From sequence record OQ658364.1: 59,556 nucleotides of DNA; one strand, written 5' to 3'. Below the pieces are notes generated by a model that was given only the letters and a program-made list of their open reading frames with translations, did not search any database and was not told the origin of the DNA. The stretch is from Pseudomonas phage sp. The first letter of the stretch is position 1. Every line of letters starts with the position of its first letter. Made by a program: the position numbers and the translations under genes. Shown here one piece after another: positions 11,358 through 13,863 of this stretch.

Positions 11358-12169
11358 CGCTCACCTCCAGGCGCTGGCGCAGCGGCAATGAGGCCCCGAT
11401 ACACACGTGCCAGGAAGGCGCGAACTGCATCCCGACCCGGGAAGTAGTACTCGGTATCCTCAACGAGATAGCCGTCCATTCCGTCCTCGCTGTCGCGGCG
11501 CGCGTCCAGCATTTCCGGGGTCGGCTCAAGCGGTACCAGCTTCCACCCTGACGGCACGTTGTGCTGACCCAGGGCGGTCTTCAGTTGGTCCTCCAAGCGC
11601 TTGGCATAGCCGCGAATGCCTTGCACGGTCCAGCCACCATCGATGGCGTCTTGCGGCAGCCCTTCGCAGATACGCTCGAACTGGCGCAGGCGCCTCAGTT
11701 CATTGACCGCTACCTCGACGGCTTCAATCACTGGCACGCCGACGTAGCCGTCCTCGATATCTACTCGATCAAGCCAGCGCACCAGAGTTTGGAGGCTTTC
11801 GGCCAGTTCGCTGTCGCCCGATCCCGGCGCGGGGTAGGGTCGCTCGCCGGCACTACCCGGTCCGGACAGAGGTTCGCCGCCAGGGTTGCCCGGCTCTGAA
11901 CTCGCTCCAGCGCCACCCAAGGCCGCCAGTGCGATCTGTCGCATGTTCGCCGCCGGGAGGTCGTCTTGCTCGGGACAGGGGAGCTCGGCGATGGTGCGGA
12001 GCGCCAGGAGGGCGCGCTCGAGCGGAATCTCTCCTGCACCCTCGGTGCCGGCCAGGTGCTTCGCTACCGTTTCCCGGATGACGCGCAGCGCGTTCATGGC
12101 TTGGAGCGAGCTGCCGTCCTGGCCGAGCTTGGCGGTCAGGTCGATCTGTTTAAACAGGGCATGGGTCAT
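11354..12169 (-). CDS. hypothetical phage early protein
   Basis: 271 aa with a Pro/Gly/Ser-rich linker. No recognisable motif. Confidence 0.45.
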   Translation of the reverse strand: MTHALFKQIDLTAKLGQDGSSLQAMNALRVIRETVAKHLAGTEGAGEIPLERALLALRTIAELPCPEQDDLPAANMRQIALAALGGAGASSEPGNPGGEPLSGPGSAGERPYPAPGSGDSELAESLQTLVRWLDRVDIEDGYVGVPVIEAVEVAVNELRRLRQFERICEGLPQDAIDGGWTVQGIRGYAKRLEDQLKTALGQHNVPSGWKLVPLEPTPEMLDARRDSEDGMDGYLVEDTEYYFPGRDAVRAFLARVYRGLIAAAPAPGGER

Positions 12170-12501
12170 AGGTCACCCCCTTGCTCGGCGCTGCGCACTG
12201 CCTGGTAGGCGAGGGCGTAGCAAGCCATTTGCACCAGCAGGCTCGAAGCCGCGAGTGCGGGGTGATCCGTGAGGGCCAGGGCCGCCACGTGCAGAGCGCC
12301 GGTAGGGATGGAGAGCCAAGGGCGGGCGAGCATGTTCGCGGCTCCTTGCCCCTTGATGCCGCCGGCGAAGATCAGCAGCCAACAGAGGACGTTTAGGGCC
12401 GCTGACACATAGAAGGCGAACTGGTGGATGGAGCCATGTCCGAAGTACAGACACGCGCTGATCAGCAGGCTGACCGCGGTACTGGTGAGTGCTTGCTTCA
12501 T
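12166..12501 (-). CDS. small membrane protein (3 predicted TM)
   Basis: Hydrophobic segments throughout. ATGA overlap with the downstream gene. Confidence 0.45.
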   Translation of the reverse strand: MKQALTSTAVSLLISACLYFGHGSIHQFAFYVSAALNVLCWLLIFAGGIKGQGAANMLARPWLSIPTGALHVAALALTDHPALAASSLLVQMACYALAYQAVRSAEQGGDL

Positions 12502-12503
12502 GA

Positions 12504-12734
12504 TCAGCGGCCTCGGGCGGCAGTGGTCAGCGCATCGAGGAGCGCATGCTTTCGGCGCTGACCATGCAGGTACTCGCGCAGGGCAACGACGATCAAGGAG
12601 TTCATGCTGCGCTCGTCTCGCTTGGCCTCGGCTTCGACCTCGGCCCTCAGGCCGTCCGGCAGACGGACAACGAACTTGTCCATGTCCCGGCTGGTGCTGG
12701 CCGGCAGTTCGGTTACAACGGTTGCTCGTTTCAT
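12504..12734 (-). CDS. ribbon-helix-helix (Arc/CopG-like) DNA-binding protein
   Basis: FVVRLPDGLRAEVEAEAKRDERSMNSLIVVALREYL is a classic RHH beta-strand plus two helices. Start set at MKRATVV. Confidence 0.55.
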   Translation of the reverse strand: MKRATVVTELPASTSRDMDKFVVRLPDGLRAEVEAEAKRDERSMNSLIVVALREYLHGQRRKHALLDALTTAARGR

Positions 12735-12775
12735 GGGATCTCCAGTGGCGCCATCGCTGGCGCCTGGGCGAGGGG

Positions 12776-13612
12776 CTACTTGCTGATGCCGATGAAGGGA
12801 AGCGGGGAGCCGCTGGCCATGTAGGTGGGCAGCTTGCCGTCCCACTTCTCGACCGCGTTGAGGGTCACGACGTCGGGGTTCGAGCGCAGCGCTTGGGCGC
12901 GGATCTCGATCGCCTTCGCATCGGCGGTGGCCAGGGTCAGCTTCGCGTCCGCCTCCCCTTGGGCCCGAGCGCGTTCCTTGTCGGCTTCTGCCTTGGCTTG
13001 GGCGACCTCGTTACGGCGCTGCTCGGCCATCTGGGTGGCCTGGATCTTCGCGTTCAGGCTCTGCGTAACCTGCGGCGGGAGGACCAGGTCGGATGCGTAG
13101 TAGATGCGCTCGATATTGATGCCGATGGGCGCCACCTGGTCGCGCACGCGCTTCTCGACGGCCAGCAGCAGGTCCGCCTTGCCGGCACCATAGACGCTCT
13201 CGACTGGAAGCTTCGAGGCAACATCGTTGAAGGCATCGCGCACCATGTTCCGCAAGAACTTGTTCGTGATTTCGTCGATACCCGCCCGGTACTTCTGGAA
13301 CAGCGTCGTCACCTTGTCGGGAGATACCGAGTAGGTGATGCCGACGGCGCCGCCAACCTTCATGCCCTCAACGGTCTGGAAGCTGATCGCTTCCTCGCCA
13401 CCCCAGGTCTCGGTCTGCGTGAAGGTGGGGAACAGGTAGAGTTCCTCGTTCACGCCTACCCAGTAGCGCCCAGTGCCGACCTCGCGCGTCTCCACGCCCT
13501 TCTCGGAGCCGTAGAGGTTGACGATCACGCCGACGTTGCCGGCAGGCACCTTCGAACAGCCCGCCAGGACGGCGAGCAGGCACAGCATTGCAGCAGCGGG
13601 AATCCGCTTCAT
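12776..13612 (-). CDS. SPFH/band-7 domain lipoprotein
   Basis: Lipobox LAGCS after a signal peptide. Band-7 core followed by an Ala/Glu/Lys-rich coiled coil (AQAKAEADKERARAQGEADAKL). Confidence 0.7.
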   Translation of the reverse strand: MKRIPAAAMLCLLAVLAGCSKVPAGNVGVIVNLYGSEKGVETREVGTGRYWVGVNEELYLFPTFTQTETWGGEEAISFQTVEGMKVGGAVGITYSVSPDKVTTLFQKYRAGIDEITNKFLRNMVRDAFNDVASKLPVESVYGAGKADLLLAVEKRVRDQVAPIGINIERIYYASDLVLPPQVTQSLNAKIQATQMAEQRRNEVAQAKAEADKERARAQGEADAKLTLATADAKAIEIRAQALRSNPDVVTLNAVEKWDGKLPTYMASGSPLPFIGISK

Positions 13613-13863
13613 TGGTCTTTCTCCTTGCTGGTGGTGGCCGCTTCTTCACGGCGGGTGTTGGCGAGGTGGATGCCGAGGCAGACCGAGGCGATCAACCAGA
13701 CGCCGGGGATGGCGAATCCCGCGAAGACCAGAACATCGTCGCGACTGCTGACCAGGGCCGGCCCAATGCCGCCCACCAGGGCGACGGACAACCCGGCATA
13801 GGCCAGCAGGGCGATACAGATCAGGAAGAGCTTCCCGGGCTTGATGAGAGGTTTGTTGTCCAT
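13609..13863 (-). CDS. small membrane protein (2 TM), partner of the SPFH gene
   Basis: 84 aa. ATGA overlap with the SPFH gene. NfeD/YqiJ-like position. Confidence 0.5.
   Translation of the reverse strand: MDNKPLIKPGKLFLICIALLAYAGLSVALVGGIGPALVSSRDDVLVFAGFAIPGVWLIASVCLGIHLANTRREEAATTSKEKDQ

Follow-up and report, generated by a model that had tools for sequence, protein, structure and literature searches.

A mobile two-gene cassette pairing a predicted SPFH lipoprotein with a two-helix membrane protein in the PL-like leftward operon of an F10-like Pseudomonas aeruginosa prophage

The sequence record OQ658364.1 (Pseudomonas phage sp.), a stretch of 59,556 nucleotides that is referred to here, in its entirety, as the window, contains a prophage whose leftward operon carries a gene for an SPFH/Band-7 protein with a predicted lipoprotein signal, directly preceded by a gene for a small membrane protein. 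A first-pass annotation, made from the sequence alone, had grouped this pair with two downstream genes. All four open reading frames (ORFs) lie on the minus strand, exactly where they had been placed. The four genes, in the order of the operon, and the approximate limits of the cassette formed by the first two are as follows.

13609-13863, minus strand: 84-aa membrane hairpin protein, partner of the SPFH protein (ORF; phrog_11742)
12776-13612, minus strand: SPFH/Band-7 lipoprotein of 278 aa (Pfam Band_7, phrog_200, AlphaFold2 [AF2] model with Foldseek)
12504-12734, minus strand: Arc-like ribbon-helix-helix (RHH) protein of 76 aa (Pfam Arc, E value 1.5e-10, 41.2 bits, cut-off 20.4, residues 15-54)
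12166-12501, minus strand: 111-aa membrane protein with 3-4 hydrophobic helices (phrog_7514, 4e-60)
12751-13865, no strand assigned: mobile two-gene cassette, approximate limits (break points against phage D14L, leader alignment)

Each ORF has a Shine-Dalgarno-like sequence and a GC content at third codon positions between 0.75 and 0.87. Their description as mostly overlapping was roughly right. The stop codon of the two-transmembrane (2-TM) gene overlaps the SPFH start codon by 4 nt (ATGA), and the three-transmembrane (3-TM) gene overlaps the next gene of the operon by 4 nt, but the SPFH and Arc-like genes are 41 nt apart and 2 nt separate the Arc-like and 3-TM genes. Since overlapping frames of the ATGA type are typical of translationally coupled genes, the 2-TM and SPFH genes are probably cotranscribed.

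The 278-aa protein matched Pfam Band_7 (PF01145) over residues 21-210 with an E value of 2.8e-21 (76.8 bits; cut-off, 23.6) and phrog_200, labeled "lipoprotein", with an E value of 1.2e-91. Its N-terminus is predicted to consist of a signal peptide followed by the lipobox L-A-G-C19. Alignment of 32 homologues revealed at least 90% conservation of C19, invariance of W257, G259, and P262, and conservation of the C-terminal motif W-D-G-K-L-P. In the AF2 model derived from these 32 homologues (mean predicted local distance difference test score [pLDDT], 79.5), an SPFH alpha/beta domain is followed by a 65-residue helix (residues 180-244), a short helix, and a low-confidence tail. Foldseek comparison of this model with the PDB retrieved prohibitin, erlin, HflK/C, stomatin, flotillin, and QmcA with E values from 1e-13 to 1e-7 and a probability of 1.00, in alignments of 245-300 columns that represent full-length matches to the subunits of known assemblies. 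The fold search was needed because the single sequence had no match among the sequences of solved structures and the corresponding profile yielded marginal matches to QmcA and HflC only, confined to the helix (E values of 1e-4 to 1e-3). The designation SPFH/band-7 lipoprotein is thus borne out by the Pfam match, the lipobox, and the modeled fold, and the long coiled coil of the first-pass annotation is seen in the model as the predicted 65-residue helix.

The nearest relatives of this copy are 86-92% identical and come from prophages of the Pseudomonas putida group and of other Pseudomonas species, placing it in a Pseudomonas sublineage. Against these homologues, the SPFH gene exhibits a ratio of nonsynonymous to synonymous substitution rates (dN/dS) of 0.08-0.11, which denotes strong purifying selection. 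Asp at position +2 is the classical inner-membrane retention (Lol-avoidance) signal of Escherichia coli, and it occurs, within C-D-R-V-E, in 100 of the 104 lipobox-bearing enterobacterial homologues; the Pseudomonas-type homologues read C-S-K-V-P in 91 of 102 cases. The lipobox predicts export, and by homology to the Asp+2 proteins the SPFH protein would be tethered to the inner membrane and face the periplasm, in the topology of HflK/C.

The 84-aa protein encoded directly upstream, which matches phrog_11742 (3e-58), agrees with the earlier proposal of a small membrane partner beside the SPFH gene. It is predicted to adopt an N-in/C-in topology in the inner membrane, with transmembrane (TM) helices at approximately residues 12-33 and 45-67. 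Consistently with a hairpin, its AF2 model comprises two helices (residues 9-37 and 41-83) and zero strands, at a modest pLDDT of 66. Across the aligned partners, the sole strong conservation is P-x-L-[VI]-S-[SA]-x-[DS] at the end of helix 1, together with a Gly early in TM2. In the protein under study the motif reads G-P-A-L-V-S-S-R-D, and it is assigned to the periplasmic turn because positively charged residues sit at both termini. The gene evolves under a dN/dS of 0.5-0.7, versus 0.08-0.11 for its SPFH neighbor over the same set of homologues. This asymmetry may reflect either a tolerance of the helices to substitution or a role of the partner in specificity or conflict. The suggestion that the partner is NfeD/YqiJ-like did not hold. 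No Pfam family matched the protein even at an E value of ≤10, the model is all helical, and the 17 residues beyond TM2 are too few to form an oligonucleotide/oligosaccharide-binding (OB) domain. A UniRef label for the 2-TM protein, "DUF997 family protein", was not reproduced by the Pfam scan either.

In the related P. aeruginosa phages F10 and D14L, the two genes are missing together. Homology to D14L breaks off at position 13866 and is regained at 12750, and the two break points overlap by 13 nt around a CTGGAG ribosome-binding motif. When the spacers of 14 distinct relatives are aligned, the left junction falls within a leader that they share. These break points and this alignment define a cassette of ∼1.1 kb that contains exactly two overlapping genes and is inserted between the ribosome-binding regions preceding the 2-TM and Arc-like genes. 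To describe linkage, 80 IMG/VR loci were anchored on the Arc-like protein, and the 72 that are complete across the region were counted. Of these loci, 27 have both the 2-TM and the SPFH gene, 45 have neither, and none has one without the other; the 72 loci are related prophages, and the counts describe linkage rather than independent events. Among 124 related GenBank phages, nine carry the whole cassette, and the exact proteins are encoded on ∼1000 or more P. aeruginosa contigs. A cargo status, which the first-pass annotation had left to a comparison of related prophages, is therefore what these distributions support, and universal conservation is not observed.

The slot that receives the cassette, between the first genes of the operon and the Arc-like gene, is itself variable. 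F10 and D14L retain the Arc-like gene and the 336-nt membrane-protein gene without the SPFH and 2-TM genes; the position of the cassette is empty in D14L and occupied in F10 by a Bro-N antirepressor gene and a small gene. Alternatives found in the slot across relatives are no insert at all, a Bro-N gene with one for a 96-aa protein, or a gene for a Rha-family protein. Besides the SPFH gene, it may also hold a gene for a DUF7666/DUF4774 protein with variable "GTATAGxx" octapeptide repeats. In many relatives this last gene, which is not in the window, lies between the SPFH and Arc-like genes (4069-4998 in locus L010, 4141-4998 in L008, and 4045-4998 in L063). Its 244- to 317-aa product has an N-terminal DUF7666 domain, and the copy number of the DUF4774 octapeptide, "GTATAG[DY][WKE]", varies between loci. 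In loci L146-L149, only a 3′ remnant of the SPFH gene stands beside it. The 2-TM and SPFH genes thus constitute a mobile two-gene accessory unit in a variable slot of a repressor-controlled operon.

The pairing extends to phages distant from the F10 group. Within 23 viral loci encoding SPFH proteins 55-92% identical to the one described here, 22 have a 59- to 102-aa two-helix ORF directly upstream, almost always with the ATGA overlap, and the remaining one (L128) has a truncated 38-aa remnant of the 2-TM ORF. A 2-TM ORF also adjoins the SPFH gene in the N4-like Stenotrophomonas phage Pokken, the Stx phage phiP27, Salmonella phage SSU5, and Burkholderia phage BcepF1. The pair further occurs in a T4-like jumbo-phage contig and in a lambdoid prophage with the identical order LuxR-79aa-...-2TM-SPFH. 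In phages 4MG, PaP4, and phiEa21-4, a 2-TM protein bearing the motif is encoded one to three genes upstream of the SPFH gene. A single sampled homologue, from Alteromonas phage AD45-P4, has an N-terminal TM helix in place of the lipobox, and it has no 2-TM neighbor. In total, 644 phage records encode an SPFH homologue. Most belong to obligately lytic groups, namely Kayvirus, Bruynoghevirus, Vequintavirinae, Ounavirinae, Schitoviridae, and phiCbK-like phages, and in the lytic phages sampled, except Kayvirus, the SPFH gene stands amid DNA-metabolism and early genes.

Annotation of these genes is uneven. The partner ORF is absent from the GenBank records of phiP27 (L153, 1262-1450) and Pokken (L152, 1296-1508), and several records mislabel the SPFH gene as "putative serine protease", "transposase", or "transposase fusion protein". 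The direct phage homologues (phrog_200), which tblastn aligned at 23-52% identity and a length coverage of 88% or more, include MbpS of Kayvirus, phiP27 L05 ("putative serine protease"), PaP4 gp18 ("transposase fusion protein"), SSU5_062, and BcepF1.002. The operon also encodes a CsrA homologue, immediately after the 2TM-SPFH pair, in prophages of other Pseudomonas species (L126-L130, ∼4878-5204) and in a lambdoid prophage from a metagenome (L160, 9114-9368).

The control of the cassette can be read from the region upstream of the operon and from the immunity region, where two sets of elements were located.

14604-14659, minus strand: PL/OL-like region (promoter scan and palindromes)
16478-16492, 16494-16508, and 16529-16543, no strand assigned: OR-like operators in the cI/cro spacer (palindrome identical in type to that at the left promoter)

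A scan with the promoter consensus identified a promoter-like site, TTGACA-17-TAGATT, at 14659-14631, upstream of the first gene of the operon, which encodes a LuxR-type protein. The cassette genes are located downstream of this site, between cI and xis/int. The operator palindrome GWACC-N5-GGTAC occurs between the two hexamers (14637-14651) and just downstream of them (14604-14618). Across the window, this palindrome has 17 matches versus 3.06 expected, and none of 100 shuffled sequences reached 17. In phages F10 and D14L, which have other repressors, the palindromes differ in sequence from GWACC-N5-GGTAC (TATGAG-N4-CTCATA in F10; GTAC-rich sites in D14L), yet those of each phage again stand both in its cI/cro spacer and at the promoter of its left operon. 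The sites of these two relatives lie at 6430-6491 and 7263-7302 (L003) and at 5789-5803 and 6666-6680 (L002). This covariation of the operators with immunity type at both places in three phages makes a good comparative case for a leftward early operon of the PL type under repressor control, and the assignment of the genes to an early-left operon made in the first-pass annotation is upheld. No promoter or terminator was found inside or flanking the cassette with a sigma-70 consensus scan, which is insensitive in GC-rich DNA. The cassette probably acts during infection and not in the lysogen.

Three known arrangements help to place the pair. The SPFH protein resembles HflK/HflC (PDB 7VHP, 7WI3, and 9CZ2) in its SPFH domain, long wall-forming helix, and C-terminal cap segment (Foldseek E values of 5e-13 to 1e-8). 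The bulk of the phage protein would likewise lie in the periplasm at the inner membrane, as its lipobox and the Asp+2 of its enterobacterial homologues suggest. It differs in that a single lipid-anchored SPFH gene product is accompanied by a separate 2-TM partner, whereas HflK/C is a pair of proteins with N-terminal TM helices. The SPFH-NfeD operons (QmcA-YbbJ, YqiK-YqiJ, and FloA-NfeD; PDB 8Z5G) likewise couple an SPFH gene to a small membrane-protein gene, and the phage fold matches that of QmcA (E value, 1.7e-7). However, the phage partner lacks an NfeD/OB domain and its conserved element is a periplasmic turn; the known pairs face the cytoplasm, whereas the phage pair is predicted to be periplasmic. 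Finally, the cIII, kil, and ea genes of lambda share the setting: they too belong to a leftward operon under repressor control that lies between xis/int and the immunity region and has nonessential, variable content. They have no sequence or structural kinship with the cassette, and lambda's products are small cytoplasmic peptides rather than membrane and periplasmic proteins.

From these features we propose the following course of events. Transcription from the PL-like promoter after infection or induction would yield both proteins. The SPFH protein would be exported, lipidated, and held at the periplasmic face of the inner membrane, where it would form a ring or cage. This last step is suggested because, to our knowledge, every structure-solved SPFH protein with the same combination of SPFH domain and long helix assembles in this manner. 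The hairpin would touch the SPFH protein through its conserved periplasmic turn and provide the membrane-spanning element that canonical SPFH proteins hold in-chain, in a "split" version of the HflK/C design. As the phage develops, the resulting cage could then fence off either a host membrane complex or a patch of the inner membrane. The structural and organizational core of this proposal is, in our judgment, very likely to be correct. The entire chain, that is, an early-expressed, periplasm-facing, HflK/C-like scaffold for host takeover with no particular target named, is put forward more tentatively, as quite possible. FtsH would be the prime candidate for a target because HflK/C encloses this protease and lambda cIII, from the equivalent operon, targets it; FtsH, cII, and cIII are tied to the lysis-lysogeny decision of lambda (PMC1838920). 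By this analogy FtsH may be captured, an outcome that we regard as somewhat unlikely.

Several observations weigh against the proposal. The link to FtsH is one of analogy, and the NCBIfam equivalog models for HflK and HflC scored far below their cut-offs (TIGR01932, 16.9 versus 134.4 bits; TIGR01933, 16.3 versus 159.4 bits). There is also one SPFH gene rather than a heteromeric pair. The C-S-K-V-P sequence of the Pseudomonas-type proteins is no established inner-membrane retention signal, and an outer-membrane location may apply in this host. The high dN/dS of the partner would also suit a fast-evolving, conflict-type role. In Kayvirus, the SPFH gene lies between the endolysin and transglycosylase genes, which points to lysis. 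Moreover, given the insensitivity of the sigma-70 scan in GC-rich DNA, an internal promoter may be active in lysogens.

Other functions were weighed against host takeover. T4 Imm and HK97 gp15 are small inner-membrane exclusion proteins, and T4 imm and sp are early lytic genes. By comparison, the early hairpin and SPFH scaffold could effect superinfection exclusion, blocking DNA entry or membrane penetration by later phages. The predicted position at the periplasmic face of the inner membrane suits this role, as do the early, optional nature of the genes and their residence in a slot that hosts other accessory genes. A fast-evolving partner beside a constrained SPFH protein is what an arms-race specificity component would look like, and, given the T4 precedents, the presence of the pair in lytic phages is compatible with exclusion. 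However, the proteins have no similarity to known exclusion proteins, none of the four proteins matched a defense family in PADLOC-DB v2 at an E value of ≤0.1, no exclusion system is known to include an SPFH cage, and protection of a lysogen would be impossible if the operon is repressed in it. We consider exclusion unlikely. The first-pass annotation had offered an exclusion or abortive-infection module and a host-takeover device side by side. Of these, lysogen-protecting exclusion or abortive infection is disfavored, since no promoter of its own was detected for the cassette, control is by PL-like operators, there is no PADLOC match, and most carriers are obligately lytic; host takeover fits better.

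Alternatively, the scaffold could act on lysis timing or membrane integrity by stabilizing the inner membrane or the proton-motive force or by restraining holin triggering; in a variant of this explanation, it might counter host abortive-infection effectors that attack the membrane. The Kayvirus homologue MbpS, besides its location among lysis genes, adjoins the gene for MbpV, a holin-like protein with one TM helix (PMC7150955), and SPFH proteins are generally tied to membrane organization and stress tolerance (PMC10434171, PMC13086221). Nevertheless, in the prophage under study and in most Gram-negative phages sampled, the pair is found in early or DNA-metabolism regions that are distant from the lysis genes, and it is not a spanin, which makes this role quite unlikely. 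A two-component spanin (Rz/Rz1) was rejected because the large coiled-coil protein, with its SPFH fold, is itself the lipoprotein, the small protein lacks a domain in the periplasm, a C-terminal TM helix is missing, and the genes are located in the early-left operon.

The cassette could also be a "moron" expressed in the lysogen that confers a defense or fitness trait on the host. Its cargo-like distribution in the IMG/VR loci, GenBank phages, and P. aeruginosa contigs would agree with this explanation, which has been the subject of speculation in the literature, and the "moron" label has been used for Burkholderia phage CSP3 (PMC10269572). Against it, the cassette lies inside, and in the same orientation as, an operon whose promoter is covered by operators, with no flanking promoter or terminator found in the scan, no PADLOC match, and carriers that are mostly obligately lytic. 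A moron function is thus improbable, and a defense role expressed in the lysogen is the least supported. Finally, a single functional unit of all four adjacent, co-oriented genes, as originally grouped, with the Arc-like protein as dedicated regulator and the 3-TM protein as third membrane component, is very improbable, because the Arc-like gene is present in F10, D14L, and all 45 SPFH-less loci, the 3-TM gene occurs in 27 SPFH-less loci and is missing from three with SPFH, and distant phages retain the 2TM-SPFH pair only.

The two downstream genes are therefore neighbors of the cassette. The RHH identity of the 76-aa protein, proposed in the first-pass annotation, is supported by a Pfam Arc score above the gathering cut-off. 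Since F10, D14L, and 45 of the 72 loci keep its gene without SPFH, the Arc-like gene is part of the backbone in the relatives examined and not of the cassette. The 111-aa membrane protein has, apart from its PHROG family, a weak match to DUF6962 only (E value, 0.011). Its gene is present in 51 of the 72 loci, somewhat more commonly with SPFH (24/27) than without (27/45), an association that is not independent evidence because the loci are related prophages. Where it is missing, the Arc-like gene is directly followed by the next gene, and the 3-TM gene is thus an independently variable accessory gene.

The wider setting of the cassette was defined by the following features.

8676-9863, minus strand: integrase gene
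9743-10018, minus strand: excisionase gene (xis)
13963-14196, minus strand: second gene of the operon, upstream of the cassette, encoding a 77- to 79-aa protein (phrog_8933; limits as in vB_Pae_U2)
14199-14585, minus strand: first gene of the operon, encoding a LuxR/GerE-type helix-turn-helix (HTH) protein (Pfam GerE, 1.2e-06; phrog_3282; limits as in vB_Pae_U2)
15668-16459, minus strand: cI-type repressor gene (Pfam Peptidase_S24 autocleavage domain, 1.5e-23; annotated as "repressor protein cI" in vB_Pae_U2)
48112-48464, minus strand: transfer-messenger RNA (tmRNA) gene, ssrA, the prophage integration site

The prophage spans ∼40 kb of the window, and the 3′ end of the tmRNA, repeated imperfectly over 32 nt (7659-7690 and 48111-48142; 91% identity), marks its two ends. 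A search for attachment sites found no common 14-mer between 7.8-8.8 kb and 47.9-48.5 kb; the repeat begins further left, at 7659. Between the left repeat and the integrase gene lies ∼1 kb of low-GC DNA (47%), and the Pseudomonas small RNA P5 maps to 59383-59453. Over the segment 9700-16500, identity is 100% with Pseudomonas phage vB_Pae_U2 and 99.9% with vB_PaeS-D14B and phage 5400, and parts of this segment recur in 124 records of P. aeruginosa phages from the F10/JBD68/PAN70 group. The element is thus an F10-like P. aeruginosa prophage at the tmRNA gene.

Additional features of the region deserve mention. The LuxR/GerE-type protein has, after its HTH, a 20-residue hydrophobic stretch, GLISPAVIALAFLVAGQPLL, which recurs in the homologues of related loci. 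Possibly the protein is a transcription factor tethered to the membrane; its gene would then be an unusual one to open a PL-type operon. The phrog_8933 protein is labeled "putative anti-CRISPR protein" in D14L. This label was not confirmed, and a literature search with its peptide returned nothing. The succession of variable small genes and a conserved gene for a small DNA-binding protein (Arc) resembles that of acr-aca loci. Between cI and the left promoter (14867-15555, minus strand) are a CopG/BrnA-antitoxin-like gene (14906-15265) and an upstream partner gene encoding 97 aa (15262-15555), followed by a terminator-like hairpin (14886-14867). The D14B annotation at this site is a toxin-antitoxin component, and the gene pair is present in some relatives only. 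In lambda, rexAB occupies the equivalent position. A 40-aa hydrophobic ORF at 11235-11357 (minus strand), MTMRKALTAIALVALFGLAAVAAGGALQPFKNLFIWEVCQ, is conserved and annotated in F10 (gp032), vB_Pae_U2, and D14L. Three tandem copies of a 24-nt repeat (18837-18908) and a set of 22-nt repeats flanked on both sides by an exact direct repeat of 22 nt (20301-20406) look like iterons and may mark the replication origin of the phage.

Phage SPFH genes have been noted before, in T4-like phages (PMC1524935), Bruynoghevirus and Pakpunavirus (PMC8540360), Burkholderia phage CSP3 (PMC10269572), Kayvirus (MbpS; PMC7150955), and a Schitoviridae phage (PMC13239085). Over twenty years of genome papers, these accounts either list the domain, call the function unclear, or speculate about it (PMC8540360, PMC13239085, PMC10269572, PMC7150955), with the speculation usually directed at HflK/C and lysogeny. 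Phages go unmentioned in a 2026 survey of the SPFH proteins of P. aeruginosa, and a paper on Kayvirus transcription yielded nothing usable on the timing of mbpS. Full-text searching of the literature retrieved no functional study of any phage SPFH protein, nor, in what is searchable, any account of the obligate hairpin partner and its motif, of Asp+2 as a signal, or of the genes behaving as a cassette.

What emerges is not a categorically new system but a well-defined, widespread, and testable combination of an SPFH scaffold and a membrane partner. SPFH scaffolds are ubiquitous, and the functions of most bacterial members are unclear. In place of a vague annotation there is now a compact unit of two genes, with a recognizable motif in the partner and with predictions of where it is located and of early, repressor-controlled expression. 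Natural isogenic contrasts are at hand, because P. aeruginosa phages that are close relatives differ in whether they carry the cassette. Should the pair have no measurable effect, it would be one more accessory gene pair. If FtsH or another inner-membrane complex is corralled, the cassette would provide a phage-derived handle on the biology of SPFH cages, and the presence of the gene in phage groups of therapeutic use such as Kayvirus, Bruynoghevirus, and Pakpunavirus would be explained. Extended to many phage families, the proposal is that a "split" machine of this kind captures a host inner-membrane complex early, be it FtsH or the DNA-entry or secretion machinery, a generalization that we deem doubtful. 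If true, it would reveal a widespread and previously unrecognized class of phage devices for host takeover or exclusion, in which the fast-evolving partner sets target specificity.

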